A stretch of DNA of 64,000 nt. Source: Candidatus Zixiibacteriota bacterium. GTDB taxonomy: Bacteria > Desulfobacterota > Binatia > UBA9968. The stretch spans positions 43,853-107,852 of the forward strand of contig DATLYW010000037.1 in NCBI GenBank assembly GCA_035574315.1, read 5' to 3'. Shown piece by piece: positions 4,214 through 61,821 of this stretch; position 1 is the stretch's first letter, and each line of letters begins with the position of its first letter. A program made the translations under genes and the position numbers. The notes beneath the pieces are model-generated. The model had not been told where the DNA came from and searched no databases. It saw nothing but the letters and a program-made list of their open reading frames with translations.

Positions 4214-4223
4214 GGCGCGTCTC

Positions 4224-7643: not shown

Positions 7644-7952
7644 GGCGCGCTCCTCCCCGGCGCTTTTTTCTGTGTTTCGTCTACTCTTCAAGGGACCGCG
7701 CTGTCAAGCCGCGCCGCAGGACGTGGCTTGACGGTTGCGGATCCGGGCGGTAGTCTGCGGCCGTCGCCGAACAATAGACGGTATCCTGTTCCCGGCGCTC
7801 TGTCTCGAACCGCGAACCGCCGCGTGGCGGCACGGCACCAACGGTTTGAGCGCCTGAACGATTTGAAGCCTCGATGGCGATCGCGGTTCGAGCGAGCCCG
7901 GCCACGATGCTCATGTACTGGCGAGCTCATTCAGTACCCGGACGGCTCTCGG

Positions 7953-16275: not shown

Positions 16276-16555
16276 GTGGTTTCAGGTTAAAGGGTCGGCC
16301 CTGTTGGCGCAAGCCTTCCACGGGAGCCGCTGTGCGGTTTCCACTTCTTCGCGTCGATCCCGGATTCAGGTTGCCGTCGACGCGGGCACCCTGGCCGCAC
16401 CGCCTCCCCTGCGCAGCGGAGGCGACGATCGGGCCACTTCGATTAAACGCCGGTGCTCGATTGAACGGCGAAGCGGCGATAGGTCGACGAACGTTGCAAT
16501 AATTGACTGCGGGCAACCCCCGTGTTACGAAGCAAAAACTTCGCGAGGAAGACAC

Positions 16556-38487: not shown

Positions 38488-40221
38488 TTATTTCCGCGCC
38501 TCTCGCCGCCGCAGCGCGGCGGTTTCCTCCTCGTCGATCGTCCAGTCCTCCGGTAGCCGCACGAGCGCGGCGGGATCGCCGCGATAGCGGATCGCCACGC
38601 CGTACGCTTCCCGCGCCTGCTCCGGCGAGACGTACCCTTCGATCACGTCCCAGAGCACCCTGGCCGGCTCGCGCTCGAGCGGGTCGCCGAAGCCCCCGCC
38701 GCCGGGCAGGTTCAGATGAACGACGTCGTCGTTCTTGAGATCGACCATCGCCTTGGGATGCAACCGCGTGCCGTCGTGCAGAAAAACCTCTCCCGGCGCC
38801 CCCTCCTTGCCCCCGAGCAGGCCGGGCGCCGGGTACTTCGTCCGGTCGGCGATCGAGCTTACGCTCCAGCGCCCCCGCCCGCGCCGCGCGAACTCGGTGC
38901 ACTGGCCGAGCCCGCCGCGCCATTTTCCCGGCCCGCCCGAATCGCGGCGCAGCTCGCGCTTCTCCAGCACCACGGGGGAAAGGCTCTCGATCACTTCCGC
39001 GGGCACGCCCGCCACCCCGCTCGGAAATCCGACCGCGCTCAGACCGTCCTTGGACGGCCGCGCGCCGGTGCCCCCTACCTGGAAGACGGTCAGCGTGAAA
39101 GGCGGGTTATCGCCGCGCCACACGCTCAACCAGATCGGGTCCGCCCCCGGCGCCATCAGTCGGCCCGGGAGGGCTCCCGAAAGGGCGGCGAAAATCGCGC
39201 TCGGCAGGAAGTGGCCGATCACCTGGCGGCTCGCCACCGGCGCCGGCTCGAGCGCGTTGAGAATGCTTCCCGGAGGCGCGCTGACGCGCACCGGCCTGAA
39301 GCTTCCCTCGTTGTGCGGCACCTCCGGGCAGATCGCCGCCTTGATCGCGAAGCTCGCGTATGCGTGGGTGTAGTTGAAAACCACGTTGATGCCGCGCGAG
39401 CTCTGCGGCGAGGAGCCCGCGAAATCGATCGCGATCTCGCCGTCGCCGACGGTCACGGCGCAGCGGATGAGGATCGGCTCCTCGAAACCGTCGCTCCAGG
39501 TCTCGCTCGTCCAGCGACCGCGCGGCAGCTTGCGGATCTCGCGCCGCACCGCCTCTTCCGAGCGGCGCACGATCTCGTCGGCGATCGGATCGATGCTTTC
39601 GAGCCCGAACTCGTCCATCATCTCGAGCAGCGCCCGCCCCCCGGCGTCGTTGCAGGCGGTCTGGGCGTAGAAGTCGCCGATCACCTCGTCGGGTTGCCGC
39701 ACGTTGGCGCGCACGATCTGCATGAGGATCTCGTTGGGCGCGCCGCGGTCGAAGAGCTTCATGATCGGCAGGCGCAGCCCTTCCTCGTAGACCTCGCGCG
39801 CTTCGGCCGACAGAATCCGTCCGCCGATGTCGGCGCTGTGGCAGGTATTGGCGAACAACGCCACCGGCCGGCCGTCCTTGAAGATCGGCGTCGTGATCGT
39901 GATGTCGTTGATCTGGCCGGCGGTCATCCAGGGATCGTTGGTGATCAGCACGTCGCCGGGCGCCAGCTTCTCGGGCGGAAAGGCGGCCAGGAAATGCTTC
40001 ATCGACGTGGCCATCGCGTTGATGTGGCCGGGAGTGCCGCTGATCGACTGCGCGATCATCCGCCCGCGCATGTCGAACAGACCGCAGGCGAGGTCCTGGC
40101 TCTCGCGCACGATCGTGCTGAAGGCGGTGCGGATCAAGGCGTCCTGCTGCTCGTTCGCGACCGACAGCAGCCGGCTCCAGATGACCTCCAGCGTGATCGG
40201 ATCTATCGCTTTAGCTCCCAT
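38488..40221 (-). CDS. hyuB: Hydantoinase B / oxoprolinase family protein
   Basis: 577 aa. The N-terminus DPITLEVIWSRL...RTAFSTIVRES is the canonical HyuB start. It overlaps hyuA by 11 nt. Confidence 0.85.
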   Translation of the reverse strand: MGAKAIDPITLEVIWSRLLSVANEQQDALIRTAFSTIVRESQDLACGLFDMRGRMIAQSISGTPGHINAMATSMKHFLAAFPPEKLAPGDVLITNDPWMTAGQINDITITTPIFKDGRPVALFANTCHSADIGGRILSAEAREVYEEGLRLPIMKLFDRGAPNEILMQIVRANVRQPDEVIGDFYAQTACNDAGGRALLEMMDEFGLESIDPIADEIVRRSEEAVRREIRKLPRGRWTSETWSDGFEEPILIRCAVTVGDGEIAIDFAGSSPQSSRGINVVFNYTHAYASFAIKAAICPEVPHNEGSFRPVRVSAPPGSILNALEPAPVASRQVIGHFLPSAIFAALSGALPGRLMAPGADPIWLSVWRGDNPPFTLTVFQVGGTGARPSKDGLSAVGFPSGVAGVPAEVIESLSPVVLEKRELRRDSGGPGKWRGGLGQCTEFARRGRGRWSVSSIADRTKYPAPGLLGGKEGAPGEVFLHDGTRLHPKAMVDLKNDDVVHLNLPGGGGFGDPLEREPARVLWDVIEGYVSPEQAREAYGVAIRYRGDPAALVRLPEDWTIDEEETAALRRREARK

Positions 40222-42280
40222 TTCTGAACTCGACGATAATGTTGAGGTGTCGATCCACGACCGCGTGGCCGCGTGCGCCGATGATCAGCGTCGACTCCCG
40301 CTCCTCGACGATCGCCGGCCCTTCCAGGACGGCGCCGGGCGAAAGCGCGTATCGGTCGAAGACCGGCGTCTCGACGAAACCGCCGCGCTCGGGGAAATAG
40401 GCGCGCCGCGAGCCCTTGCGGGCGCCCGCGGCCGATCCGCCGCGCGGGAGCTCGATCTCGGCCTCCGGCACCGGGCCGGTTGCGACCACGCGCCAGTTGA
40501 TGATCTCAAGGGGAACGTCCGGGCCGCGCCTGCCGTAGAGCGCCCGGTAGGCGGTCTCGAACGCCGCGGCGATCTCCGGGACATGGCCCGCGCCGAGCCG
40601 CCCGCCCGGAAGCGGCACCGAGACCTCGTGCCCCTGGCCCACGTAACGCATATCGGCGGTCCGCTGATAAGAGATCTCCCCGGGCGCGAGTCCCGAGCTT
40701 TCCAGCACCGCTCTGCCCTCCTCGGCCATCTCGTCGAGCAACCGGTTCGCCAGCGCCCAATCCTGGTTGTCGAGGCGGCTGTAGGCGCTGCGCACGAAGT
40801 CGAAGGCCAGCGGTGCGGAAAGCAGGCCGAACGTCGAGCCGACGCCGGCGCCGAACGGCGAGATCAACGCGGGGAGGCGAAGAATCTCGGCGACGCGATA
40901 GCCGTGCACCGGCCCGGCCCCGCCGAAAGCGTAGAGCGGCATGCGGCGCGGATCCTTGCCGCGCTCGCCGAGGTGCGCGCGCGCGGCGTTGGCCATGTTC
41001 TCGTTGACGATCTGATGGATGCCCCAGGCGGTTTCCTCGGCGCTTTTCCCCAGGGCGGCGCCGAGGCGCGCGAGGGCGGCGCGGGCGCCTTCGTGGTCGA
41101 GCGCCATCCTGCCGCCGAGGAAGTAACCGGCGTCGAGATAACCCAGAATCAGATCGGCGTCCGTCACCGTCGGCTCGGTTCCTCCCCGGCCGTAGCAAAC
41201 CGGTCCCGGATCGGCGCCGGCGCTTTCCGGCCCGACCTTCAACAGGCCCAGAGAGTCGACGCGGGCGATGCTGCCGCCGCCGGCGCCGATCTCGATCATG
41301 TCGATTACGGGAATGCGGATGGGCAGGCCGCTCCCCTTGCGGAAGCGGTAGACGCGGTCGACCTCGAACTCGTGAGCCTTCAGCGGTCGCCCGCCCGCGA
41401 TGGCGCAGAGCTTGGCGGTCGTGCCTCCCATGTCGAAGGACAGCAGATCGCGATGGCCGCAGCGCGCGCCCGCCCGGGCCGCCGCCAGCGCCCCCGCGGC
41501 CGGGCCCGACTCGAGAAGGCGAACGGGAAAGCGCGCCGCGGTCTCGCGGGTGGCGATCCCGCCGCTCGACAGCATCACGAAGAAACTCCCCCCAAAGCCG
41601 ATGCGATCGAGGCGCCGCTGCAGCTCGGCGAGATAGGAGGAGACCCGTTCCTGGACGTAGACGTTGGCGAGGGTGGTGCTCGAGCGCTGGAACTCGCGGA
41701 TCTCGGCGACCACCTCGGAGCTGAGCGAGACGCGGATCTCGGGCGCCACTTCCGCGATGATCTCGGCCGTGCGGCGCTCGTGCGCCGGGTTGCGAAAGCT
41801 GTTCAGATAGGAGACCGCGATCGCCCGCACGCCCCGGTCGCGCAACTCGGCGACGAGCCGCCGCACGAACTCCTCGTCGAGAGGTCGCAGCACCGACCCG
41901 TCGGCGGCCACCCGCTCGGGGACGTCGAAGCGCAGGTGGCGCGGCACCAGGGGCCTGGGCAGCTCGAGGTTGAGGTCGTAGAGCTCGTAGCGGTGCTCCC
42001 GCCCGATCTCGACCGCGTCGCGGAAGCCGCGGGTGGTGAGCAGCGCGGTGCGCGCCCCCTTGCGCTCGATCAGCGCATTGGTGACCAGCGTGGTGCCGTG
42101 GATCAGGACCCCTCGCTTCCCGTCGCGGCCCTCGGCCAGCGCCGGCCCGAGCACGTTTTCCACGGCCAGGCTCGGGTCACCGGGGGTGGTGAGCGTCTTT
42201 CCGATGACCGCCCGCCCGTCCTCGCCGACGAGCAGCATATCGGTGAAAGTACCGCCGATGTCGATGCCGACACGAAACAT
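40211..42280 (-). CDS. hyuA: Hydantoinase A / oxoprolinase family protein
   Basis: 689 aa. The N-terminus MFRVGIDIGGTFTDM is canonical for HyuA/N-methylhydantoinase A. Confidence 0.85.
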   Translation of the reverse strand: MFRVGIDIGGTFTDMLLVGEDGRAVIGKTLTTPGDPSLAVENVLGPALAEGRDGKRGVLIHGTTLVTNALIERKGARTALLTTRGFRDAVEIGREHRYELYDLNLELPRPLVPRHLRFDVPERVAADGSVLRPLDEEFVRRLVAELRDRGVRAIAVSYLNSFRNPAHERRTAEIIAEVAPEIRVSLSSEVVAEIREFQRSSTTLANVYVQERVSSYLAELQRRLDRIGFGGSFFVMLSSGGIATRETAARFPVRLLESGPAAGALAAARAGARCGHRDLLSFDMGGTTAKLCAIAGGRPLKAHEFEVDRVYRFRKGSGLPIRIPVIDMIEIGAGGGSIARVDSLGLLKVGPESAGADPGPVCYGRGGTEPTVTDADLILGYLDAGYFLGGRMALDHEGARAALARLGAALGKSAEETAWGIHQIVNENMANAARAHLGERGKDPRRMPLYAFGGAGPVHGYRVAEILRLPALISPFGAGVGSTFGLLSAPLAFDFVRSAYSRLDNQDWALANRLLDEMAEEGRAVLESSGLAPGEISYQRTADMRYVGQGHEVSVPLPGGRLGAGHVPEIAAAFETAYRALYGRRGPDVPLEIINWRVVATGPVPEAEIELPRGGSAAGARKGSRRAYFPERGGFVETPVFDRYALSPGAVLEGPAIVEERESTLIIGARGHAVVDRHLNIIVEFRNGS

Positions 42281-43486: not shown

Positions 43487-44467
43487 TCATCGGTAAAGCT
43501 GCTTGTAGAAGCCCGAAGCCTCCAGCTCCTTGACGAACCGGTCGTCGTAGAAGCTCTCCGGCTTCGCGCTCTTCGCCCTCGGGTTGCGCGGCGCGATCTG
43601 ATTCAGCACCTCCTGCACGCCTTCGCGGGTGTTGTAGGGGATGCGCTCGACGTAATCCAGCGCATACTGATAGACCGCGTCGACCACCTTCGGATCGGTG
43701 GCGCGGGCGAAACGGCGGATCGCCCTCCGGCTCAGCTCGGGATCGGAGAACAGCCGCGCCACTCCTTCCGAGTAGGCTTTCATGAAACGGCGGATCAGGT
43801 CCTCGTTGGCCTGGATGAAGGAGCGGCGCGCCATCCAGGCGTCGTGCGGGAAGTAGATGCCGGCCTTGCCCATGTTCAGCAGCACGCGCGCGCCCGCCTC
43901 CTGTGCCCGCAGATTCGCCGGACTGGAGAAAGGCGCCGCGACGATCGCCCGCGTCTTCAGAGCCGCGGCGGCCGCGAAGAGGTCTCCCATCTGGATCAGC
44001 GTCACGTCCCGGTTCGGATCGAGGCCGTGCCGGTGCAGCACGTAGCGGATCGTGAAGTCGGTCGACGAGCCGAAGCGGGTCACCCCGACCGCCTTGCCGC
44101 GCAGGTCCTCGATGCTCTTGATCTCCGGCAGCGCCATGATGTAGAAAGCCGGCACCTTCGCCAGCGCTCCGATCATCACCACGTCCGCTCCCGCCAGCGC
44201 GGCGTCGACCGCCGCGTTGCCCGCCGCCGCGGCGAGCGGGAGATCGCCCCCGAGCATCGCCTGAACCATCTTCGATCCGGAAGTGATCAGGATCAGCCGC
44301 GGATCGATCCCGTGCTTGGCGAGAATGCCGCCTTCTTCAGCGACCCACAACCCGGCCTTGATGCCGGTGATCGCCGTGTAGCCGATCGCCAACGTCTCCG
44401 CCGCCGGCCTTCCCGGTACCGAGAGCATAGCTACGAGGAGCAGGAGCGTGCACGCTCTTTTCGCCAT
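43487..44467 (-). CDS. NMT1/SsuA-like ABC substrate-binding protein (signal peptide)
   Basis: Start ATG 44465-44467 (MAKRACTLLLLVAMLSVPG), preceded by GGAGG. It is the third secreted NMT1-type SBP in the window. Confidence 0.7.
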   Translation of the reverse strand: MAKRACTLLLLVAMLSVPGRPAAETLAIGYTAITGIKAGLWVAEEGGILAKHGIDPRLILITSGSKMVQAMLGGDLPLAAAAGNAAVDAALAGADVVMIGALAKVPAFYIMALPEIKSIEDLRGKAVGVTRFGSSTDFTIRYVLHRHGLDPNRDVTLIQMGDLFAAAAALKTRAIVAAPFSSPANLRAQEAGARVLLNMGKAGIYFPHDAWMARRSFIQANEDLIRRFMKAYSEGVARLFSDPELSRRAIRRFARATDPKVVDAVYQYALDYVERIPYNTREGVQEVLNQIAPRNPRAKSAKPESFYDDRFVKELEASGFYKQLYR

Positions 44468-44609
44468 ACGCCGGAGCCTCCTTGACAGTTTTCTGGTTCC
44501 CGGTTCCGGGCTTCCTCTCGTCCCGGTCTTCGGTCGCCCGTCCGTTTTTCCGTAAAGGAGTACTACACACCCGCCCGCGCACGGTGTCAAACGGTCGGTT
44601 GTGCCGCCC

Positions 44610-45608
44610 TCAGCCCGCCCGTCGGGCGGCGCGGGCGCGATACGCCGCGGCGAGGGCGTCGAGATGGCGCTCGAGCTGCTCGTAGCCCGCGTCGCGCGGC
44701 AGCTCTTTCAAGCCTGCGATCAGCTCTTTCAAGCTCTCCGTTTCGCGGTACAGCCCGGCGATGCGGTCGTAGTAAAGATAGTACGCGAGGTCGTGGCTGA
44801 GCTTCGCCTCGACGGCGGTTTCGGCGTGCTGGTCCCGCAGCTCGCGCCAGAAGCGTACCCGGTAGACCGGAAGCGCCTCGACCAGTCCGAGCAGCCGCGT
44901 CTTGACCCGCTCCGGGTCGTCCTCCTGCACCCCGCGCACGACCTCAGCCGCGAGCAGGTTCAGCTCCCGCGACAGCCGCCTGTCTTCCTCCACCGCCGCC
45001 ACCGCCCGCCGGGCGTTTACTTCGTCTCCGAGGCTGCGGAAGAACTCCACCGCTGCAAGCGCCGCCAGTGGCGTAACGACCGCCTCCTCGATCTCCCACG
45101 GGAGGTCGAAGTTGGCGTCACCGTGAAGGTCCTCGTGCAACACGACCACCACGCGCCGGAGCAGGCCCTCGCGCGCGAAGGCCGACGTCGCGCGCGAGCG
45201 GGCGTCGGCGAACTCGTTCCCCTGCCGGTAGTAGACGCTGTAACGGTCAACGCGGTAGACCTGCTCGAGCCGGCGAGCCTGCGGCGGCCCGGAAAGCGCG
45301 ATCGCCAGGCGAACGTCGACCGGCCGCCGGACCGCGATCGTTCCGGCGCGCTGCAGCCAGAACCAGACGATCGAAGGCGCGTCGGCGTCGTCGGCGGCGC
45401 GGCGCAGCGCATCCGTCGGCACGATGCCGATACTCCGCGCGAAAGTTTTGACCTCCTCCGCCATGCGCACCGTCCCGCGCAGGCCGGCGTATCGTTCAGG
45501 GGAAAGATCCAGGGCTGCGCACGACGCAAGCCACAGAGCGGCCCCCAGGCAGCCGAGTCCTCGCCCGGCGGCCTTCGAGCGGAAAGACGACCCGAAAAGG
45601 CGGCTCAC
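44610..45608 (-). CDS. Lipoprotein with HExxH motif (putative zinc metallopeptidase / predicted-aminopeptidase-like)
   Basis: Lipobox WLASC and an HEDLH motif. The size and organisation resemble PF10023-type predicted aminopeptidases. Low certainty. Confidence 0.4.
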   Translation of the reverse strand: MSRLFGSSFRSKAAGRGLGCLGAALWLASCAALDLSPERYAGLRGTVRMAEEVKTFARSIGIVPTDALRRAADDADAPSIVWFWLQRAGTIAVRRPVDVRLAIALSGPPQARRLEQVYRVDRYSVYYRQGNEFADARSRATSAFAREGLLRRVVVVLHEDLHGDANFDLPWEIEEAVVTPLAALAAVEFFRSLGDEVNARRAVAAVEEDRRLSRELNLLAAEVVRGVQEDDPERVKTRLLGLVEALPVYRVRFWRELRDQHAETAVEAKLSHDLAYYLYYDRIAGLYRETESLKELIAGLKELPRDAGYEQLERHLDALAAAYRARAARRAG

Positions 45609-45617
45609 GCGGCCCCC

Positions 45618-46499
45618 CTAGGCGGCGAAGAGCGAGGCGATCGGCACGCTCCGCGGGATGGCGCCGGTTGCGACGAGCATCTCCATCTCCGCCTGGAAGA
45701 TCTGTTGCTCCTCGTCGGTCCAGGTGAACTCGATCCGGGGGTAGCGCGCCGAGGCGAGCAGGGCGTCCCGGTCGCCGCCGTAGCGGCGCACGAAGGCTTC
45801 CCCGATCTCCTCGAGATGGCGCTCGCTGTAGGCGAACGAGTCGCGAAACGCCCGAAGCACCGATTCCTTCGATTCCGGATGGCGGGCGAGCCACTCTTCG
45901 CGCACGGCCACCATATGCTTGATCATCTGTTCGAAGCCGGTCAGGCGCATCCACGCCTCGCCGTCCGTGTAGAGGCAGCGGACGTCCGGCGCCGATTCGC
46001 CGCGAAAGAAAAATTGATCCAGGAGCACCACCGCGTCGACACGCCCGCTCCGCAGCGCCTCGAGCAGCTCTTCCTGGGGCCGGGCTTCCCAGCGCAGGGT
46101 CGCGTCGTCGACGCCCCACGCGCGCCGCAGCAGATAACGATGGATCGCATGCGGGCCCTGGTGCGTCGCGATGAGGGCGCCCGCGAGGTCCTGCGGCTTG
46201 CGGATCGGACCGTCGCGGCGCACGAAAACGCCGTTGCCCTTGAGCGTCGATTTCCACTCGGTCGCAAGCCCGACGATCGGGGCGCCTTCGAGCTTTCGCC
46301 GGAGAAAATTGGCGACGTAGAGATTGGCGACATGGACGTCGCCCCGAATCAACGCTTCCTCGAGGGCGCGGCTCGGAGGATCCGGTACTTCGACCACCTC
46401 GATGCGCAGCCCCGGCGGGCGGACTTTCCCGGCCGCCAGCGCGTAGTAGGTCCTGAACATGCAGAAACGGTTGCGGTAATGCGCGACCGTCAGCTCCAT
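45618..46499 (-). CDS. Cytoplasmic NMT1/THI5-fold protein (PhtD-like)
   Basis: Start ATG 46497-46499 (MELTVAHYRNRF), with no signal peptide. It overlaps the upstream M20 gene by 10 nt. Confidence 0.5.
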   Translation of the reverse strand: MELTVAHYRNRFCMFRTYYALAAGKVRPPGLRIEVVEVPDPPSRALEEALIRGDVHVANLYVANFLRRKLEGAPIVGLATEWKSTLKGNGVFVRRDGPIRKPQDLAGALIATHQGPHAIHRYLLRRAWGVDDATLRWEARPQEELLEALRSGRVDAVVLLDQFFFRGESAPDVRCLYTDGEAWMRLTGFEQMIKHMVAVREEWLARHPESKESVLRAFRDSFAYSERHLEEIGEAFVRRYGGDRDALLASARYPRIEFTWTDEEQQIFQAEMEMLVATGAIPRSVPIASLFAA

Positions 46500-47746
46500 A
46501 TCTTTCTCCGGGCCGGGACGACCGCCGCGCGAGGTTTGGTGCAGATATCCAGCGCCGCCAGCGCGTACACCTTCGTGCAGTTTACCATGTTCTCGATGCC
46601 CACGCCGCGGCGCAGGCCGCTCGGGGTGTCCCACTCCGCCGGCGCCTTGGTTTCCGTCGGATCGACCAGGTGCGTGCCGAAGCCCGGGCCGTAGGTGATG
46701 CTCGGAACCCCGTACGCGGCGATGCGCGAGCCGTCGCTCGTGATACCGTAGCGGACCGGCTTCGAATAGGGAACCGGCGTTCCGAAGACTCTCTTGTGCG
46801 CCCGCTCCATCGCCTTGACGACGTATTCGCTCTTCGGAATCTCGTAACCGTCGGTCGAAAGATAGAGATCGACCCGGACGTCGAGAATGTCGCCGTCGCG
46901 CCTGCGCACTTTTTCACACACCTGCTCGAGCTCCCTCCGGATCTCCATCGGCGGGGTTCCCGGCAGGGTCTTGACGATGACGAAGAGATCCGTAGTTGGC
47001 CGCGTTCCCGGCTTGAACGGATTGCCCCCCTCGATTGCGCCGATCTGCACGGTGGGCAGCATGAACTTGTGCGTGTACTTGCGCTGGTACTCCTTTTCCC
47101 AATCCTGGATCGCCTGCGCCACCCGCGCGGCGGCGAGCACGAACCGGGTGGCCTTGCCGTCGACGCTCACCCGGGCCCACACGAGCCCGGCGTTGCCGAT
47201 TTGCAGGTGCAGCCCCGTCGGCTCCCCGATGATGCACATATCCGCAGTGACGCCGTGATCCATCATATAACGAGCGCCGATTCCCGCTCCCCGATAGCTC
47301 TTTCCCTGGAACCTCCCGATCGGGGCCTTCTCGATCTCGCCGACGACACCGGAAATGATCACGTCGCCCTTAAGCCGAACCCCCGCGCGCTGGATCGCGG
47401 CCACCGCCTCGAGATAGCACGGGAAGGCCGCTTTCATGTTGACCAGCCCCCGGCCGTAGACCCGGTCGTCCTCCACCTTGGTCTCCTGCGGGCTGTCGAA
47501 GTGATCCAGGTGCGCGCAGAACATCAGCGTGGCGCCGCCGCCGGTGCCCTTGAGCCTGCCGATCACGTTCGGCCGCCCCTCTTCGACCTCCTGATACTCG
47601 ACCTCCATGCCGAGCTCCGCGAATTCCCGCCCGAGGTATTCGGCGAACTCTTTCTCCTCGCCTGTGAGGCTCACGATGTTGGCGGCGTTGCACGCAAGCT
47701 CCACCAGACGCTGCCGGTCGACCTGTTCGAGGACCTGCTCTTCCAT
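46490..47746 (-). CDS. M20-family metallo-amidohydrolase (ArgE/DapE/N-carbamoyl-amino-acid amidohydrolase-like)
   Basis: Start ATG 47744-47746 (MEEQVLEQV), preceded by GGAAGGAG. HxDxF (CAHLDHFD) and GEPTG, with a dimerisation insert. The 527-aa track ORF is an extension. Confidence 0.8.
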   Translation of the reverse strand: MEEQVLEQVDRQRLVELACNAANIVSLTGEEKEFAEYLGREFAELGMEVEYQEVEEGRPNVIGRLKGTGGGATLMFCAHLDHFDSPQETKVEDDRVYGRGLVNMKAAFPCYLEAVAAIQRAGVRLKGDVIISGVVGEIEKAPIGRFQGKSYRGAGIGARYMMDHGVTADMCIIGEPTGLHLQIGNAGLVWARVSVDGKATRFVLAAARVAQAIQDWEKEYQRKYTHKFMLPTVQIGAIEGGNPFKPGTRPTTDLFVIVKTLPGTPPMEIRRELEQVCEKVRRRDGDILDVRVDLYLSTDGYEIPKSEYVVKAMERAHKRVFGTPVPYSKPVRYGITSDGSRIAAYGVPSITYGPGFGTHLVDPTETKAPAEWDTPSGLRRGVGIENMVNCTKVYALAALDICTKPRAAVVPARRKIWS

Positions 47747-50047: not shown

Positions 50048-50380
50048 CTATTCGCCCTTTGCGAACGCCGCCTTCAGCATCGATTCCAGCTCGCCTCGCT
50101 CGTGCAGCTCGTGCAGGATGTCGCAGCCGCCGATGAACTTCCCGTCGATGAAAACCTGCGGGATCGTCGGCCAGTTGGAGTAGCGCTTGATTCCCTCGCG
50201 AATCCGCGGGTCGGCCAGCACGTCCTCGGTGGCGAAGGGATAGCCGTACGATCGAAGGATCTCGACCGTGTGGGCGGAGAAGCCGCACTGAGGGAAATCG
50301 GGCGATCCCTTCATGTAAAGCATCACCTTGTTTTTCTTTACCTTCTCGTCGATCTGGTTGAGGATGTCATCCGCCATCAT
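50048..50380 (-). CDS. grxD: Monothiol glutaredoxin (Grx4/GrxD, CGFS type)
   Basis: CGFS active site in KGSPDFPQCGFS, WPTIPQVFI, and C-terminal GGCDI. Confidence 0.85.
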   Translation of the reverse strand: MMADDILNQIDEKVKKNKVMLYMKGSPDFPQCGFSAHTVEILRSYGYPFATEDVLADPRIREGIKRYSNWPTIPQVFIDGKFIGGCDILHELHERGELESMLKAAFAKGE

Positions 50381-50397
50381 TTCCTCCCGACGCCGCC

Positions 50398-50652
50398 TCA
50401 GCGGCCGAGCTTCTCCCACTGGGACGGCGTAAAAAGTTTGAGCGTCAGCGCGTGGATACGCTGATCTTGCATCGGGTCGCGGAGCGCCTCGTTGACCATC
50501 CGGTGCTGCTCGAGCAATCCCTTGCCCTCGAACGCCGGGGACACGATCAGGAGCTGCCAGTGGTCGCCCCCTCCGGTGAGATCCTGCAGCTCGATGGTCG
50601 ACACCGGAAAGGCTTTTTCCAGCGTATTCTTGATCTCTTCGGCGGTGATCAC
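50398..50652 (-). CDS. bolA: BolA-family protein
   Basis: 84 aa with a BolA fold (GGGDHWQLLIVSPAFEGK...H). It is the classic partner of Grx4. Confidence 0.8.
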   Translation of the reverse strand: MITAEEIKNTLEKAFPVSTIELQDLTGGGDHWQLLIVSPAFEGKGLLEQHRMVNEALRDPMQDQRIHALTLKLFTPSQWEKLGR

Positions 50653-50700
50653 GCCCGAATTGTACCGGGTCGCGACCGCCCTTTCAAGCGAGCGGCGCTC

Positions 50701-51210
50701 TCAGGACGAGCCGGGCTGAGGATCGAAGTCGCTGCGGACCTTTTTCATCATTTCTCTCAGGTCGATTCGCAGCTCGTCGAGCGTCGGCCGGCCCACGTAC
50801 CAGTAGCCGCAGTACAGGTTGTGGATCGTGAGATCCGGCAGCAGCGAAAAGGTATAGGGGATCGCCGTTACCCCGCGGCTCCTGGACGTCTCGGTCATGT
50901 CGAGCGACCGAACGATCTTACGGTCGTGGTCGCTCAGAAACGGAAACTCGGCTCCCAGCCCGGCCCGGAATGCCGCGCTGACCTCGGGCGGGTCCACGCT
51001 GGCGACGGCGAGCCTGCAGTAGCTGACCGCCAGCTCCCTCTGGAACTCCACTAAACGGCGCAACTGCACCTGGCACTTCGGTCACCAGTAGCCGCGGTAG
51101 AAGCAGAGAATCAGGGGGAAATTGCCGGCCAGCTCCGACAGCCGGACGGACCGGCCGTCGTGGTCGACGAATTCCAGATCGGGAAGCTGCCCGCCGATCG
51201 AGTACTTCAT
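50701..51210 (-). CDS. Peroxiredoxin/BCP-like (AhpC/TSA, thioredoxin-fold) protein with an in-frame TGA at 51082-51084: candidate selenoprotein (U-P-K-C)
   Basis: ATG 51208-51210 (GGAGG 5 nt upstream) opens MKYSIGGQLPDLEFVDHDGRSVRLSELAGNFPLILCFYRGYW. Then comes TGA, then PKCQVQLRRLVEF... in the same frame for 126 more codons, including the BCP-like FPFLSDHDRKIVRSL block. The TGA occupies the first Cys of a W-C-P-x-C redox motif. Confidence 0.55.
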
Positions 51211-51267
51211 GGGAACCTCCGCGCTTCTTTTCGCTGCGCTGCTTTTACCGCGGGCGACTCCGGGCCG

Positions 51268-52020
51268 TCAAATCCCCGTTTTCCGCCAATCGCGCGCTTC
51301 GAGCGCCTGCCCGGTCACAGCGGCAGAGGCGTCCGAGGCAAGATAGACGAAGACCCCGGCGATCTCCTCCGGCGCCGGGAGCGACAACGGATCCTCCTCG
51401 GGATAGGCCGCGGCGCGCATCGCGGTTCGTGTCGGGCCCGGATTGACCGAGTTCACACGAACGCCGTATTCGCGAACCTCCTCGGCGACCATCTGCGTCA
51501 ACCCTTCCAGCGCGAACTTCGAGGCGCAGTAAGCGCCCCAGCGGGGCTTGCCGACGCGTCCGACGCCGGAGGACACGTTGATGATCGAACCGCTGCGGCG
51601 CGGAATCATGATCCTGAGGGCCTCCTGAATCAGCAGAAACGGCCCCGTAAGATTCACCCGGAGCACCTCTTCCCACGCCGCCCGCGGGTACTCCACGATC
51701 GCGACGCGCGGTCCGAGCAGGCTCGCGTTGTTGACCAGGATGTCGAGCCCGCCGAAACGCTCGCGCGCTGCGCGCATCAGCTCGTCGACGTCCTCCGCCC
51801 GGCCGACGTCGGCGCCGACGGCGATCACCGTCGCGCCTGCGCCGCGAAGCTCCGCTTCCGCCGCCCGCAGCGCCTCCACGCCCCGCGCACAGATCAGGAC
51901 CGCGGCTCCGGCGCGGGCGAAGGCAAGCGCCACCGCCTTGCCGATGCCCCGGCTGGCGCCGGTGACCAGGGCCGTTTTGCCGGCGAGCGGTTTTTCGATC
52001 TCGCTTCCCATGCGAGGCAT
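51268..52020 (-). CDS. SDR-family oxidoreductase
   Basis: TGASRGIGKA, NNAS, YCASK (YxxxK). Confidence 0.85.
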   Translation of the reverse strand: MPRMGSEIEKPLAGKTALVTGASRGIGKAVALAFARAGAAVLICARGVEALRAAEAELRGAGATVIAVGADVGRAEDVDELMRAARERFGGLDILVNNASLLGPRVAIVEYPRAAWEEVLRVNLTGPFLLIQEALRIMIPRRSGSIINVSSGVGRVGKPRWGAYCASKFALEGLTQMVAEEVREYGVRVNSVNPGPTRTAMRAAAYPEEDPLSLPAPEEIAGVFVYLASDASAAVTGQALEARDWRKTGI

Positions 52021-57491: not shown

Positions 57492-58865
57492 TCACCCCGC
57501 CCGCAGCAGCTCCGTCAGCTCCCGGATCGACGAAAGCTCCTCCAGCGAAGAGACGGCGGCGATGATTCGTTCCGCCCTCGATTCCGGCAGGGCGAGGCGA
57601 GCGTTCGCGCGGAACTTCTCCTGCAGCTCTTCCGGCGGCAGCGGCCACTCGGGTCCGCCCCGCGGGTGCGGCTGGTTTTCCTCGAGGACCGTCCCGTCGT
57701 CGAGCACGACCCGCACGTGGCCCGAGAAGTGGCGGGGGTAGTCGATCGACGGGTCCAGCTCGTAGCGGACCTTTGCCGCGAGCGCGAGAATTTGCGGATC
57801 GCGGATCGCCGCTTCGGAGAATTCTTCCAGGCCGGCTCTTCCACGCACCAGGATCGCGGCGATGCTGTACGGCAGACTGAACTTGGCGCCGTAGGAGGTC
57901 GCCGGCCGCCGCTTGCTTTCCAGCGGTTCCCAGAGCCGGTGCACCGGCCCTTCGGCCGTCCGGCAGACGATCTCCGCGATGCGTGCCGGGACGAGACCGT
58001 GCTTCTGCCGGAGCCTCAGAGCGCAATCCATGTAGGGATGGGATATCGAGCCGCAGGGATACGACTTGAACGTCAGCCGCGGGGTTTCCCAGGCCCGGCC
58101 GAGCTCCGCCAGCCCTCGAAAATCATAGTCGTCCGGACCCCCGAAGCAGCGATAGAAGCCGTGGCGGCCCTCGAAGACCGTCGCCGGTCCGCGAAAACCC
58201 TGAGCCGCGAGCCAGGTCGCGATCACGCCCGCGTGGGCCGACCAGCCCGGGTGGAGGCGCTTGGTCCAGGTCCCGTCGGCGAGATACTCGATGATGCCCG
58301 AGCTCTGGCTCCCGCACAGCCCGAGGGCATCGACCCATTGCGGCTCCGAGAGGCGGTAGAGCTTCCCCGCCGCAGCGGCCGCGCCGAAGGTGGAACAGAC
58401 CGCCGTCGGATGAAAGCCGCGCGCATGGAACCTCCCCGGCGCTACCAGACCGACCTTGCAGAGCACCTCCGTCGCGGCGATCGCCGCTTCCAGCACGGCG
58501 GCACCGCTGGCGTCCACTTCCTCGCCCACCGCCAGAGCCGTCGTCACCGCGCAGCATCCCGTGTGGACGATCGCTTCCTCCAGCGTGTCGTCGTAGTCCA
58601 GCCCATGGGCGAGAGTCCCGTTTGCCAGCACGGCGTTGGGCGCCGCCGCCCGGATCCGCGACCCGATCACGGTACTGTGCGGCGCCCCGCCCAATCGCTC
58701 GGCGACCCCGCAGACCATTCTCCCGAAGTCCATCGTCGACGAGGCCAGTGCAACGCCGAGCGTGTCGAGGAAAACGAGCTTCGCCTTGGCCGTAACCTCA
58801 GGCGGAACCGCGCCCAGCTCGAGCGAGGAGACGAAACGGGCTATCTGCTGCGAACAGGTCTCCAT
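57492..58865 (-). CDS. MmgE/PrpD family protein (2-methylcitrate dehydratase-like)
   Basis: 457 aa, PrpD fold signatures (DxLG...HGxDYDD). Confidence 0.8.
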   Translation of the reverse strand: METCSQQIARFVSSLELGAVPPEVTAKAKLVFLDTLGVALASSTMDFGRMVCGVAERLGGAPHSTVIGSRIRAAAPNAVLANGTLAHGLDYDDTLEEAIVHTGCCAVTTALAVGEEVDASGAAVLEAAIAATEVLCKVGLVAPGRFHARGFHPTAVCSTFGAAAAAGKLYRLSEPQWVDALGLCGSQSSGIIEYLADGTWTKRLHPGWSAHAGVIATWLAAQGFRGPATVFEGRHGFYRCFGGPDDYDFRGLAELGRAWETPRLTFKSYPCGSISHPYMDCALRLRQKHGLVPARIAEIVCRTAEGPVHRLWEPLESKRRPATSYGAKFSLPYSIAAILVRGRAGLEEFSEAAIRDPQILALAAKVRYELDPSIDYPRHFSGHVRVVLDDGTVLEENQPHPRGGPEWPLPPEELQEKFRANARLALPESRAERIIAAVSSLEELSSIRELTELLRAG

Positions 58866-60289
58866 GCCTGAGCTCTCCTCTGCGCCGGCCGTGCTCTGGG
58901 CCGCTCGCGCCCTCCGGCGACGGCGCGCAGGAGCGGATCGATCGGGCCCCCGGACTTCAGCCGCGTGACCGCGTCGATCGCCTCATCGATGCGAGGCTTC
59001 GGCAGCACCAGGCGCGCGCAGTCGCGGAACTTCTCGCACAACTCCTCCCATGTCATCGGTTTTTCGGGATGTCCGCGGGCGACATCGTATCGGCCCTCGA
59101 TGACGGTGCCGTCCTTCAGATGAACCCGCACCCGCGAGCGAACCTGATCGTAGCCGAGCGCTTCCAGCTCCTCGTCGACATAGAGTTTCACCCGCCGCAT
59201 GAGATCGACGACTTTCGGGTTCCGGACCTTGGCGTCCCTGAACTGCGCGATTCCGGCCTTGCGCTCCAGCACCCCGATCGCCATGCAAAACGGGATGCTG
59301 AACTTCCCCTCGAGCGCGGTCTTCGGCATCGGGTAAATGAGCGCGTTCGGAACGTTCGAGTTGGTTCCCACCTCGATCGAAGCGATATCCTCGGGACGAA
59401 GGTCGTGCTTCTTGACGAGATCGAGGATCAGATCCTGGGCCGGGTGCGAGAGCGAGCCCGACGGATAGGGCTTGATCGAGATCCCCGGCTCGACCAGGAA
59501 GTAGGGACGACCGAGCCTTCCCGAGATCTTGGCGGCGTCGTAGCCGCCCGCCATGGCATTGTAGAATCCCCTGGGAGCCTCGAGGATGTTCGGCGCCGCG
59601 GTGTGGCCGGCGCGTGCCAGCAGCGCCGCCATGGCGCCGTTTTCGGCCGCGCGTCCGGCATGGAGCGGCTTGGTCATCGTGCCGAAATTTTCCCGCAACC
59701 CCCCGGCCATGCTCGCCGCGATTCCCAGAGTCCGGGCGAGCGCCTCCGGTCCCAAGCCGAGGATCCTGGCGCACGCCGCCGCGGCCCCGAGGCCCCCGAT
59801 GGTCGCCGTCGAGTGAAACCCCGACTGATAGTGGCGCGGGTTGATCGCGTCGGCGATCCGGCACTCGACCTCGACTCCCAGAACGTATGCCAGCAGGAGG
59901 TCCCGCCCTCCCGCCTTTTCCCGCTCGGCCAGCGCAAGGGCCGCCGCCAGAACGGGCGTCGTCGGGTGGGTGAGCAGGCCGTAAACCGCTTCTCTGGACG
60001 TCGAGAGCTGGGTGTCGTCGTAATCCATCGCATGGCCCGCCACACCGTTTACCAGCGCGGCCATCGGGGCCGGAGCTTTCCAGCCGTGCCCCAGGATGCT
60101 CGCCTCCTCTCTTCCGCCCATCTCGCGGACGTACGCCTGGATGATGCGCGCCCCCTTTTCCGTGGAACCCGCCAGCGCCACACCCAGACCGTCCAGGATG
60201 AAGCCTTCCGCCAGTCGGATGACCTCCGCAGGGAGATCGCGGTACCTGGTCCTGGCGACGAAATCGGCTATCTCCTGCGTGATCCCCAT
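58841..60289 (-). CDS. MmgE/PrpD family protein, second paralog
   Basis: 482 aa, the same family (FILDGLGVALAG...HAMDYDD). It overlaps the downstream paralog by 25 nt. Confidence 0.8.
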   Translation of the reverse strand: MGITQEIADFVARTRYRDLPAEVIRLAEGFILDGLGVALAGSTEKGARIIQAYVREMGGREEASILGHGWKAPAPMAALVNGVAGHAMDYDDTQLSTSREAVYGLLTHPTTPVLAAALALAEREKAGGRDLLLAYVLGVEVECRIADAINPRHYQSGFHSTATIGGLGAAAACARILGLGPEALARTLGIAASMAGGLRENFGTMTKPLHAGRAAENGAMAALLARAGHTAAPNILEAPRGFYNAMAGGYDAAKISGRLGRPYFLVEPGISIKPYPSGSLSHPAQDLILDLVKKHDLRPEDIASIEVGTNSNVPNALIYPMPKTALEGKFSIPFCMAIGVLERKAGIAQFRDAKVRNPKVVDLMRRVKLYVDEELEALGYDQVRSRVRVHLKDGTVIEGRYDVARGHPEKPMTWEELCEKFRDCARLVLPKPRIDEAIDAVTRLKSGGPIDPLLRAVAGGRERPRARPAQRRAQAWRPVRSR

Positions 60290-60514: not shown

Positions 60515-60630
60515 GCACCTTATCCAGAGTGGTGGAGGGATCGGCCCTTCGAAGCCACAGCAACCGGTTCCTGAAGAGGGAACGCTGGTGCTAATTCCCG
60601 CTCCCGGCAACGGGAGAAAGATAAGGTGAG
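60515..60630 (+). ncRNA. SAM-I (S-box) riboswitch aptamer
   Basis: CTTATCCAGAGTGGTGGAGGGATCGGCCCTTCGAAGCCACAGCAACC...GGTGCTAATTCCCGCTCCCGGCAACGGGAGAAAGATAAGG matches the S-box consensus cUCUUAUCaAGAGnGGuGGAGGGAcuGGCCCgAuGAAgCCcrGCAACC...GGUGCUAAuUCC...GAuAAG. P1 is CTTATC/GATAAG. Confidence 0.8.
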
Positions 60631-60636
60631 GGTCGA

Positions 60637-60672
60637 CCTCTTCTTATCTTTGCGATGGAAGAGGTTTTTTTT
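60637..60672 (+). terminator. Riboswitch expression-platform intrinsic terminator
   Basis: CCTCTTCTTATC-TTTGC-GATGGAAGAGG followed by T9. The 5' arm (CTTATCT) can alternatively pair with the P1 3' strand (AGATAAG) as an antiterminator. Confidence 0.6.
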
Positions 60673-60687
60673 TGGTACGAGACGGCG

Positions 60688-61455
60688 ATGAGCCTGACCG
60701 CCGAGCAGATCGAACGCTACAGCCGCCAGATCATGATTCCGGATCTCGGGGGCGCGGCGCAAATCCGCCTGCGCCGAGCCCGCGTGCTCGTGGTCGGCGC
60801 AGGGGGCCTCGGCTCCCCGGCCGCGCTCTACCTCGCCGCAGCCGGCATCGGAGGGCTCGGGCTGGTCGACAGCGACCGCGTCGAGCTGTCGAACCTCCAG
60901 CGGCAGATTCTCCACTCGACGGCGGACATCGGCCGGCCCAAGGTCGAGTCCGCACGGGAGCGCCTCCGGCAGCTCAATCCAGAAGTCGCGGTGGAGACTT
61001 ATCCCCTGCGTCTCGAGGCCGACAATGCCGCGGAGATCTTCGCCGGCTACGACTTCATCGTCGACGGAAGCGACAACTTCGCCACCAAGTTCCTGGTCAA
61101 CGATCAGGCGGTTGCCCTGGGAAAACCGTTCTCGCACGCGGGAATCGTGCGGCTCCAGGGCCAGACCATGACGGTCATTCCGGGAAAGAGCGCCTGCTAC
61201 CGCTGTGTCTTCCGGGAGCCTCCTCCGCCGGCCGAGATTCCGGGGTGTCAGCAGGCCGGAATCCTGGGGGCGGTGGCCGGAACCATCGGCTCGATCCAGG
61301 CAGCCGAAGCCATCAAGGTGCTCGCCGGGATCGAGGAGGGCCTGCTCACCGACCGCTTGCTCACCTTCGACGCCAGGGCGATGAAGTTCCACGCCGTGGA
61401 GGTTCGGAGGGACCAGAGCTGCAGCGCCTGCGGAGGGCTGCGCCCGCAACTGTAA
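60688..61455 (+). CDS. ThiF/MoeB/MoeZ-family E1-like adenylyltransferase
   Basis: Start MSLTAEQIERYSRQI. VLVVGAGGLGSPAALYLAAAGIG nucleotide-binding motif, and a CxxC...CxxC zinc site (CYRC...CSAC). Confidence 0.8.
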   Translation: MSLTAEQIERYSRQIMIPDLGGAAQIRLRRARVLVVGAGGLGSPAALYLAAAGIGGLGLVDSDRVELSNLQRQILHSTADIGRPKVESARERLRQLNPEVAVETYPLRLEADNAAEIFAGYDFIVDGSDNFATKFLVNDQAVALGKPFSHAGIVRLQGQTMTVIPGKSACYRCVFREPPPPAEIPGCQQAGILGAVAGTIGSIQAAEAIKVLAGIEEGLLTDRLLTFDARAMKFHAVEVRRDQSCSACGGLRPQL

Positions 61456-61528
61456 GGCGGGGCTCGAGGCGCCGGTCGGTGGAAGTGAAAGATGTTCTGA
61501 TTTAAACTGGTCAAGGAGGTTTGATTTT

Positions 61529-61807
61529 ATGGCAGTTAGAGTCCGCGTGCCCACGCCGCTTCGCAAATTCACGCACGGCGCGGACGAGGTCGATGCTCAG
61601 GGGAGCACGGTCAAGGCGATCGTCGAGGACCTGGAAAGGAAGTTTCCGGGAATCAAGGAGCGGATCTGCGACGAGAACGGGAAGATCCGGCGCTTCGTGA
61701 ACGTCTACGTCAACGGCGACGACATCCGTTTCCTGCAAAACCTCGAGACCTCTCTCAAGGAAGGGGACAGCATCTCCATCGTCCCCGCCATCGCGGGCGG
61801 CCGCTGA
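61529..61807 (+). CDS. MoaD/ThiS-family sulfur-carrier protein (CysO-like), C-terminus ...AIAGG-R
   Basis: 92 aa, a beta-grasp-type sequence ending in GG followed by one extra Arg. The RBS is AAGGAGG. Confidence 0.65.
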   Translation: MAVRVRVPTPLRKFTHGADEVDAQGSTVKAIVEDLERKFPGIKERICDENGKIRRFVNVYVNGDDIRFLQNLETSLKEGDSISIVPAIAGGR

Positions 61808-61821
61808 GCCGGAGCGGAGGC

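Follow-up and report, generated by a model that had tools for sequence, protein, structure and literature searches.

The interval 51210..50701 on the minus strand of the window (the whole 64-kb stretch of DNA analysed) very probably holds a single 169-residue selenoprotein gene, in which UGA codon 43 would be recoded by SelB and an mRNA hairpin and whose product is most likely a selenol/thiol oxidoreductase of the AhpC/TSA fold. The internal stop codon of this mis-annotated redoxin gene almost certainly encodes selenocysteine (Sec). Direct translation gave one frame of 169 codons, from M1 to S169, closed by a terminal TGA (50703-50701) and interrupted only by an in-frame TGA at codon 43 (51082..51084), which lies in the context G-Y-W-TGA-P-K-C. 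Read as Sec, as its conservation and the alignment of Cys-containing relatives suggest, this codon supplies the first position of a U-P-K-C motif, and the invariant TGC of codon 46 (51073..51075) supplies the second, putatively resolving Cys of U-x-x-C. The start codon ATG occupies 51210-51208 and is preceded, 5 nt upstream, by the Shine-Dalgarno sequence GGAGG (51216..51220). The coordinates assigned to the start, the Shine-Dalgarno sequence, the TGA (51084-51082), the terminal stop and the hairpin in the original prediction proved exact.

Replacement of U by C in the translated product yielded a single Pfam match, AhpC-TSA (PF00578), which covers residues 5-128 and spans the TGA (E 1.3e-19; 70.8 bits versus a cut-off of 26), in agreement with the earlier proposal of one thioredoxin-fold gene in which UGA replaces the first Cys of a W-C-x-x-C type motif, giving U-P-K-C. 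The domain begins at residue 5, and the N-terminus, MKYSIGGQLPDLEF, contains no hydrophobic segment; indeed, neither a ResA-like signal peptide nor a membrane anchor was detected in it. The encoded protein, hereafter the Sec redoxin, is a cytoplasmic AhpC/TSA-fold protein. Across the 64-kb window, 273 raw pairs of same-frame ORFs split by a TGA were counted, six of them coding-like on both sides, and the evidence provided by the single sequence alone (split ORFs and local folding, the latter with z -1.0 to -1.4) did not exceed chance. No second selenoprotein was identified in the window, the other TGA-split candidates being adjacent genes that share a frame by chance. In contrast, comparative data lift the TGA-split gene far beyond chance, since the TGA is found in 43/43 orthologous loci and codons 47-51 lack any synonymous variation.

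The 43 orthologous loci that carry TGA at codon 43 belong to different GTDB species, mostly represented by uncultured MAGs labelled Binatia or Deltaproteobacteria. The same codon is also TGA in three distant homologs (L044, L045, and L046), whose identity to the C-terminal part is 45-59%. Patterns used in the locus search were back-translated with Cys and were thus not biased toward TGA; neither TGC nor TGT occurred at codon 43 in any of the 46 sequences, and every close relative seen was a Sec form. Upstream of the TGA (codons 2-42), pN was 0.18 and pS 0.73, which corresponds to a dN/dS of about 0.08, and downstream of it (codons 52-160) dN/dS was 0.079, so that the upstream flank is under protein-level selection as strong as that acting on the downstream flank. 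The frame and the positions of the start and the ribosome binding site are conserved in the 40 loci compared, with a purine-rich GGAG or GAGG at the same distance from a conserved ATG/GTG in most of them, and the Cys of codon 46 is invariant (40/40 sequences).

A candidate bacterial SECIS element was located immediately downstream of the UGA. Its putative core, GGUGC-AGUU-GCGCC (14 nt; 51057..51070, minus strand), overlaps codons 47-52 and forms a 5-bp stem with a 4-nt loop, AGUU, whose second and third nucleotides are G and U. The distance from the UGA is 11 nt to the start of the hairpin and 16 nt to its apical loop, a SECIS-like spacing. The 11-nt spacer (51071..51081) has an identical length in all 43 loci as well as in L044 and L045, whereas its nucleotides differ among loci at codon 44 and in wobble positions. 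Codons 47-51 (CAG GTG CAG TTG CGC) showed zero synonymous variation in 40 sequences, and no other run of several adjacent codons among the 160 analysed is free of synonymous change; all other degenerate codons vary, with the exception of the isolated T83. The hairpin is under RNA-level constraint and displays the strongest nucleotide conservation within the gene.

All 55 core-stem cells in the compared sequences were paired. Four loci (L012, L030, L032, and L042) exhibit a U.G to U-A change in the stem, and L044 carries a G-C to C-G change, the only compensatory one, so that covariation support amounts to a single compensatory event. RNAalifold recovered the 5-bp hairpin together with a weak 3-bp helix, and detected no conserved lower stem including the UGA. 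In L046, a second TGA occupies the position of the second Cys and the hairpin is a different one. The core hairpin has a minimum free energy (MFE) of -6.5 kcal/mol; a value of -10.7 kcal/mol is reached both by the 7-bp version that some homologs possess and by the window sequence in its 48-nt context. Local fold stability did not differ significantly from that of shuffled sequences (z -1.0 to -1.6), and the argument for the hairpin therefore rests on conservation. Originally described as weak on its own, the element is indeed thermodynamically weak in its core, yet it proved highly conserved.

The candidate element shares several features with the SECIS of Escherichia coli fdhF, including the start 11 nt after the UGA, the G+C-rich stem and the small apical loop with G and U. 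Furthermore, the GCACC variant of the 3' arm, found in four loci, is what we take to be the corresponding arm of the fdhF SECIS. The minimal fdhF hairpin comprises about 17 nt with a bulged U; the candidate is shorter (5 bp plus a 4-nt loop) and, unlike the fdhF element, has no conserved lower stem that includes the UGA. A search of the whole window against Rfam gave no match at the hairpin, the sole match being a SAM riboswitch. To our knowledge, Rfam holds no general bacterial SECIS model, and this null result at the hairpin is thus uninformative. In the published bSECIS model, the stem comprises 4-16 bp and the loop 3-9 nt with a G within the first two positions, the distance from UGA to loop is 16-37 nt, and the MFE is -7.5 kcal/mol or lower (PMC13188914). 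The hairpin fits this geometry, with a stem of 5 bp (7 bp in some homologs), a G in the loop and a UGA-to-loop distance of 16 nt that coincides with the lower bound of the model (PMC13188914), while the MFE of the core lies above the -7.5 kcal/mol limit.

Three other explanations of the internal TGA were weighed against selenocysteine insertion. That the codon is a true stop, belonging to a decayed pseudogene or arising from a sequencing or assembly error for TGC/TGT, corresponds to the view adopted by gene callers, as reflected in the MAG annotation and in the 117-142 aa tails that make up the best 120 database relatives, and would suit the L041 homolog, which has additional stops and a frameshift. 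The same TGA is found, however, in 43/43 independent assemblies from different species and in the three distant homologs, and an independent Logan assembly of run SRR7882662, from whose reads the MAG may nevertheless also derive, shows the same split into 42 and 122 aa. Moreover, a dN/dS of about 0.08 on each side of the TGA and the retention of start, ribosome binding site and protein sequence on both sides, despite saturated synonymous sites, would be unexpected in a decaying gene. The conservation data effectively refute this explanation, whose probability is negligible. Alternatively, two products could be made, a 42-residue peptide and a protein of 119-122 residues initiated at GTG48 or TTG50, with the conserved nucleotides acting as a restart or initiation signal. 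Both codons are invariant, which makes a restart site formally available, gene callers choose downstream starts, and Sec machinery was not detected in the window or in the related loci sampled. Nevertheless, the AhpC/TSA domain is continuous over residues 5-128, and a protein starting at residue 48 would lose the first strands and the entire active-site motif, whereas each Cys-type relative consists of one polypeptide that carries Cys at precisely the position of codon 43. In addition, the variable 11 nt that precede GTG48 show no purine-rich Shine-Dalgarno sequence, the compensatory change in the hairpin is not predicted by an initiation signal, and the second TGA and different hairpin of L046 fit Sec rather than restart. 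Taken together, these data render separate products highly improbable.

Read-through of the UGA without Sec, by near-cognate insertion of Trp or Cys or by another form of hairpin-stimulated programmed read-through, was also considered. Stable structures downstream of a stop codon can generally stimulate read-through, and none of the Sec machinery turned up in the 64-kb window and the related loci that were sampled. Indeed, selA, selB and selD were detected neither in the window nor in about 400 kb of related loci, as judged from Pfam searches of about 60 window ORFs and from SelD/SelA/SelB regular-expression motifs scanned over 466 kb, and ARAGORN found no tRNA, including tRNA-Sec, in the window or in 42 loci. 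These null results do not count against selenocysteine, since the DNA covered, 64 kb from the source and at most 12.5 kb from any related organism, is a small part of each genome. Against read-through without Sec, codon 43 corresponds to the catalytic Cys of the relatives, a position at which Sec is a well-known substitute, and U-x-x-C in PF00578 is an established selenoprotein signature (PMC13188914; PMC2398784). The hairpin also fits the bSECIS geometry, with a G-U-containing loop at 16 nt. Insertion of Trp would replace the nucleophile and leave the enzyme inactive, and insertion of Cys would be achieved more simply by TGC or TGT, which are found in 0/46 sequences. Such read-through is accordingly very unlikely. 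A genome-wide reassignment of UGA was excluded because TGA terminates 27 of the 47 Pfam-supported genes in the window, the Sec redoxin gene included, and is thus an ordinary stop codon here.

The alignment of Cys homologs at the UGA, anticipated in the original prediction, was borne out. Among the 53 motif-bearing relatives (50%-identity clusters), the Sec position is occupied by Cys in 51 and by Asp in two. At the position of codon 46, all Cys-type relatives have Asp or Glu, so that their motif is C-P-K-[D/E] and never CxxC, suggesting that the chemistry of the closest Cys relatives may differ from that of the Sec form. In a profile search against solved structures, U43 and C46 fell on the CxxC cysteines of ResA, and P118 (50857..50859), a Pro that is invariant superfamily-wide and in its column of both alignments A2 and A4, aligned with the Pro of ResA 'PLPTTF'. 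In the profile alignment with 3c71, 'GyfCpkd' was paired with 'GTWCPHC' and 'aiPytf' with 'PLPTTF'. As the Pro of this ResA segment is the cis-Pro, P118 would likewise be a cis-Pro facing the active site. The active site of the Sec redoxin, composed of U-x-x-C and a cis-Pro-type position, thus appears to resemble that of a ResA-type thiol:disulfide oxidoreductase placed within a peroxiredoxin-like fold.

Evidence on the fold came from a Cys relative, P0137, used as a stand-in for the Sec redoxin. In its AlphaFold model (pLDDT 91.7), Cys56 directly precedes a helix formed by residues 57-75, and the best fold matches were BCP/PrxQ and ResA, with E values of 3e-12 to 8e-12 and TM scores of 0.70-0.87 against 5epf and 3hjp, and, for ResA, a TM score of about 0.84 when normalised to ResA. 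According to this model, the Sec redoxin would adopt a Prx-type thioredoxin fold. BCP/PrxQ proteins (PDB 5epf, 3hjp, 2cx3) gave the best matches in both sequence-profile and fold comparisons, and C46 falls on the position of their peroxidatic Cys. However, the PxxxTxxC...R signature of these enzymes is missing: the peroxiredoxin Pro, Thr and Arg positions correspond to R39, U43 and P118 in alignments to 5epf, 2ywn and 2cx3, the Arg of 'VKRTTFVID' (5epf) and 'AKRAVFIV' (2cx3) being aligned with the invariant P118, and the Cys relatives have Asp or Glu where the peroxidatic Cys would lie. By alignment, the peroxiredoxin catalytic residues are thus absent from the Sec redoxin, which, with neither the PxxxTxxC motif nor the catalytic Arg, does not conform to a canonical BCP/PrxQ peroxiredoxin. 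The term peroxiredoxin/BCP-like, applied to this gene at the outset, describes the fold correctly but not the chemistry. With ResA/TlpA (PDB 1st9, 3c71), the Sec redoxin shares the placement of U43 and C46 on the Cys pair of W-C-x-x-C and of P118 on the 'PLPTTF' Pro. It differs from them in having neither signal peptide nor membrane anchor and in possessing an additional conserved helix at the C-terminus (about residues 143-158, as aligned to the model); its score against the NCBIfam ResA model was 23.3 bits versus a cut-off of 170.

Selenoproteins of the kind represented by the Sec redoxin have been known from bacteria since 2004. Prx-like thiol:disulfide oxidoreductase selenoproteins of PF00578 with UxxC/UxxU motifs have been predicted in Geobacter, Syntrophus and Desulfotalea, and their counterpart in ocean metagenomes is 'Prx-like 1' (PMC13188914 Table 1; PMC1794560; PMC2398784). 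Common to these proteins and the Sec redoxin are PF00578, U-x-x-C with Sec for the first Cys of a CxxC-type site and a SECIS within the coding sequence right after the UGA, as well as the UxxU variant, seen here in L046. In contrast to them, the Sec redoxin clade has no curated NCBIfam model, derives from the uncultured Binatia- or Deltaproteobacteria-labelled MAGs mentioned above, and consists, as far as its close members are concerned, entirely of Sec forms, with Cys relatives of the C-P-K-[D/E] type. Its assignment to these selenoproteins is made at the level of kind, rather than of the orthologous group to which the prototype WP_010940744.1 from Geobacter sulfurreducens belongs. The best NCBIfam match was NF040769, 'SelL-related redox protein' (E 5e-12), to which the Cys relatives scored 26-29 bits; membership of the Sec redoxin was rejected, its 45.8 bits being below the cut-off of 120. 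SelL and the Sec redoxin both have a Prx-like thioredoxin fold in which the redox motif occupies the same position, and the UxxU that defines SelL occurs in L046, but the Sec redoxin contains one Sec instead of two. Our literature search retrieved no link of Binatia or Binatota to selenocysteine, and the deep-Sep paper makes no mention of the Sec redoxin family.

In the mechanism that we propose, UGA codon 43 would be recoded as selenocysteine via the standard bacterial route, in which SelB with Sec-tRNA(Sec) would bind the mRNA hairpin GGUGC-AGUU-GCGCC within the coding sequence. By analogy with the modelled Cys relative, U43-P-K-C46 would cap the N-terminus of the first long helix and face P118. 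Judging from motif and fold, the product is most likely a selenol/thiol oxidoreductase. Its oxidised substrate, which could be a disulfide or a sulfenic acid and possibly a peroxide, would be attacked by Sec43; resolution of the adduct by Cys46 would then yield an internal selenenylsulfide, and re-reduction would be carried out by a thioredoxin- or glutaredoxin-type system.

The neighbours named in the original prediction were identified by Pfam at the expected positions, all on the minus strand. An SDR gene (51268..52020; adh_short, 2.7e-61) lies 57 nt upstream, a BolA-family gene (50398..50652; BolA, 2.8e-17) 48 nt downstream, and a monothiol CGFS glutaredoxin gene (50048..50419; Glutaredoxin, 1.3e-21; 'PQCGFS' in its translation) overlaps the end of bolA. 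In about 34 of 42 loci, the first gene downstream of the Sec gene is bolA, synteny of the glutaredoxin gene is conserved across loci, and an SDR gene is found upstream in most loci, at a variable distance of 0.7-4.5 kb. The proposed redox operon was thus supported as conserved synteny but not as a transcription unit, since several genomes have unrelated genes inserted between the Sec gene and bolA, and the spacer contains a promoter-like match. The genes inserted in L011 were considered as redox or selenium genes and rejected, their products being NMT1-type binding proteins, a methyltransferase, a GDSL lipase, a carbamoyltransferase and SxtJ. From the conserved neighbourhood we infer that the Sec redoxin may be functionally tied to the bolA-grxD pair.

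As had been foreseen, gene callers split or miss the gene. Database matches at E <= 0.001 comprised 1357 clusters, made up of truncated Sec forms and some share of Cys-type relatives; the best 120 of these were all truncated Sec forms of 117-142 aa. Six database relatives that were inspected start at codons 48-51, and the record of the source MAG is a 122-aa hypothetical protein. This widespread family is present in databases only as a tail devoid of the active site, usually under the name 'peroxiredoxin' or 'hypothetical protein'.

We tentatively envisage, as a rather unlikely scenario, that these proteins form a Sec-only clade in an uncharacterised superfamily of R-G-x-x-C-P-[KR]-[DE] redoxins, in which Sec would have been gained together with the resolving Cys (D/E to C, with a second Sec in one branch), the 14-nt SECIS would then have become fixed and remained nucleotide-identical down to 45% protein identity, and adjacency to bolA-grxD might tie selenium redox chemistry to iron-sulfur handling by monothiol glutaredoxin and BolA in the Binatia lineage. 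The 14-nt invariant natural SECIS, 11 nt past the UGA, represents a very small element that is directly testable in E. coli. The current understanding of selenoproteins is left unchanged, UxxC thioredoxin-fold proteins being the commonest predicted class of bacterial selenoproteins. Nevertheless, the full-length Sec form corrects the truncated database records and implies the use of selenocysteine in the lineages of the host MAGs.

Re-reading of the reverse strand reproduced exactly every coordinate of the original prediction. The redoxin gene (51210-50701, 169 codons) begins with an ATG at 51210, preceded by a GGAGG ribosome-binding site (51220-51216, read directly from the sequence), and translation showed it to be interrupted after 42 codons by an in-frame TGA (51084-51082) in the context G-Y-W-TGA-P-K-C. 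The terminal TGA (50703-50701) lies in the same frame, 126 codons past the internal one, and a hairpin, GGTGC-AGTT-GCGCC (51070-51057), was read directly 11 nt past the internal TGA. With this TGA read as Cys, one Pfam AhpC-TSA match (E 1.3e-19, 70.8 bits) bridges it across residues 5-128, and therefore both ORFs are pieces of a single domain, as had been claimed. TGA-separated ORF pairs in the same frame are common in the window (66% G+C), and the lone sequence is not beyond chance.

When genomes, one for each GTDB species, were scanned with back-translated peptide patterns that had Cys at codon 43, 42 loci were obtained, chiefly MAGs labelled Binatia or Deltaproteobacteria. Codon 43 was TGA in all 43 sequences (these loci plus the window), inside W-U-[P/G/A]-K-C (U, selenocysteine), and the position of the start codon and of a purine-rich ribosome-binding site was kept among orthologous loci. 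Upstream of the TGA, codons 2-42 showed a pN of 0.18 and a pS of 0.73 (dN/dS ~0.08), and downstream codons 52-160 gave a dN/dS of 0.079; thus, the same protein-level selection operates on both sides of the "stop". A variant genetic code was excluded, since TGA is the commonest stop in the window and terminates 27 of its 47 genes, the redoxin gene included. Gene callers shorten this family everywhere, as had been anticipated: the best 120 protein-database matches are all 117-142 aa long, and the six inspected among them all start at codons 48-51. One locus (L041, 6001-6485) keeps the TGA at codon 43, but its reading is further broken by an extra stop in frame near codon 76 and by a frameshift just past "MPY"; it is either a decaying copy or reflects mistakes in the assembly of a long-read MAG. 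The Cys-type relative L047 is likewise frameshifted, at a T-run.

Full-length relatives were recovered by searching the C-terminal piece against 1.8 billion cluster representatives. Among the 53 relatives bearing the R-G-x-x-?-P-x-? motif, the position of the UGA is occupied by Cys in 51 and by Asp in 2, in agreement with the Cys-for-Sec alignment expected for a selenoprotein. Where the window protein has C46, 52 of them have Asp or Glu and one has Ala; Cys does not occur there, and therefore the U-x-x-C motif is specific to the selenocysteine clade. We consider it highly probable that the UGA at codon 43 encodes selenocysteine. A more distant TGA homolog (L046), uncorroborated and known from a single short metagenome contig of 563 bp, contains two in-frame TGAs (W-TGA-P-K-TGA, hence U-P-K-U, a UxxU as in SelL) and a different hairpin, GGAAUUG-GUC-CAAUUCC, located 30 and 21 nt downstream of the first and second UGA, respectively. 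Some Cys-type relatives (P0124, P0133) are ~280 aa long with a C-P-R-D motif; the C-terminus of P0124 matches cold-shock-domain models (CspD, E 6e-11) and its C-terminal segment is shared by P0133 in the alignment, an unusual combination of redoxin and cold-shock domain.

Codon-by-codon analysis of 40 sequences revealed zero synonymous variation in codons 47-51 (CAG GTG CAG TTG CGC), whereas all remaining degenerate codons of the gene vary, with the exception of T83. This stretch is thus under nucleotide-level constraint on top of coding, coincident with the hairpin. The 5-bp stem was recovered by RNAalifold, and its sole change in the 43 sequences, a G->A substitution in four loci, converts a U.G pair into U-A. 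In a homolog 59% identical (L044), the hairpin reads GCUGC-AGUU-GCGGC: a G-C pair is replaced by C-G, a compensatory change that leaves loop and 11-nt spacer as they are, and in another with 45% identity (L045) the identical 14 nt are retained; the stem variation seen is pairing-preserving, with covariation amounting to one event. In its spacing (11 nt) and its G-U loop, the hairpin is reminiscent of the minimal E. coli fdhF element. The original prediction had called the hairpin weak on its own, which holds for its stability, the local fold not exceeding shuffled controls in stability (z -1.0 to -1.4), but not for its conservation. In the published bacterial SECIS model, the stem measures 4-16 bp, the loop has 3-9 nt and carries G within its first two positions, usually with G or U next, and 16-37 nt separate UGA and loop (PMC13188914). 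The geometry of the hairpin (stem of 5-7 bp, AGUU loop, 16 nt from UGA to loop) falls within this model, although the core by itself, at -6.5 kcal/mol, does not attain the limit of -7.5; the 7-bp version reaches -10.7. Judged from sequence, the behavior of the hairpin fits that of a SECIS element.

In profile searches against solved structures, U43 and C46 fell on both Cys of W-C-x-x-C in ResA, and the invariant P118 aligned with the Pro of ResA "PLPTTF", which we take to be the cis-Pro. Against the BCP/PrxQ motif PxxxTxxC, U43 falls on Thr and C46 on the peroxidatic Cys, whereas P118 falls on the catalytic Arg and R39 on the Pro position. In the AlphaFold model of the Cys-type relative P0137 (pLDDT 91.7), the homologous Cys directly precedes a long helix, and its best structure matches are BCP/PrxQ and ResA. 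Together, these alignments and the model point to a predicted thiol:disulfide oxidoreductase layout on a peroxiredoxin-like scaffold. The earlier description as peroxiredoxin/BCP-like is therefore apt for the fold but not for the chemistry, since the PxxxTxxC motif and the catalytic Arg of canonical peroxiredoxins are both absent. No signal peptide was found in the window protein, so it is predicted to be cytoplasmic.

The gene is preceded by an SDR gene and followed directly, on the same strand, by genes for BolA and a CGFS glutaredoxin and then for a TPR protein and DUF4197. The order redoxin/bolA/grx is held in ~34 of the 42 loci, and synteny extends over ~10 kb; these loci clearly represent one lineage. 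Several of them carry 2-4 kb of unrelated genes between the redoxin gene and bolA or SDR. In the window, the 48-nt spacer before bolA contains a sigma-70-like match (TTGAAA-17-TACAAT, 10/12 positions, 50659-50687, reverse strand) whose -10 ends 7 nt before the bolA GTG, and therefore bolA-grx may have its own, possibly leaderless, transcript. Because of the shared-lineage synteny, the inserted genes and this promoter-like match, this linkage does not establish an operon: the "redox operon" proposed originally is supported as conserved gene order, and a functional tie with BolA/Grx is only a hypothesis. The taxonomic labels of four loci (L001, L002, L028, L030: Eisenbacteria, Udaeobacter, Chloroflexota, Verrucomicrobiia) and of the window's own protein record (P0001, Zixibacteria) conflict with gene content. 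These loci and the window share the ~10 kb synteny with Binatia/Deltaproteobacteria MAGs, with neighbours ~80% identical at the protein level; probably, the labels are unreliable or the bins contaminated.

Elsewhere in the window, a SAM riboswitch (Rfam RF00162, 90 bits, 60517-60627, forward strand) lies directly upstream of forward-strand genes for a ThiF-family protein (60655-61455), a ThiS-family sulfur carrier (61529-61807) and a PLP-dependent PALP enzyme (61822-62823). The region 60517-62823 resembles a cluster for Cys/Met-type biosynthesis that is under SAM control and depends on a sulfur-carrier protein. Gene families recur often in the window: Amidohydro_2 is represented by three genes and the NMT1/THI5-like substrate-binding proteins by four or five (3047-7691, 31461-32378, 35927-36916, 43487-46634); NMT1-like genes also adjoin the redoxin gene in L011. 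The window further contains a hydantoinase A/B pair (38488-42280) and, side by side, two MmgE/PrpD paralogs (57492-60289). A 589-aa ORF (16274-18043, forward strand) has a deoxyhypusine synthase domain confined to its C-terminal half (residues 264-567) and no Pfam match in its N-terminal 260 residues; its start may be mis-set, or it may be a fusion.

No selA, selB, selD or tRNA-Sec gene was found in the window or related loci, which represent <2% of each genome. "Prx-like thiol:disulfide oxidoreductase" selenoproteins (PF00578, UxxC/UxxU) have been predicted from 2004 on and form a high-confidence family (PMC13188914; PMC1794560), and in ocean metagenomes "Prx-like 1" (pfam00578, UxxC) ranks with the most abundant families of selenoproteins (PMC2398784). 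The redoxin gene shares their defining features, PF00578 and UxxC. Membership in NCBIfam SelL_rel_redox was rejected (45.8 against a cut-off of 120 bits), no curated family model covers the protein or its Cys relatives, and a literature search returned no paper tying Binatia to selenocysteine. The gene is thus a new, unannotated member of an already predicted kind of Prx-like selenoprotein, and it is of value mainly for the correction of annotation, as a sign that these MAG lineages use selenocysteine, and as the source of a putative SECIS that is both natural and compact.
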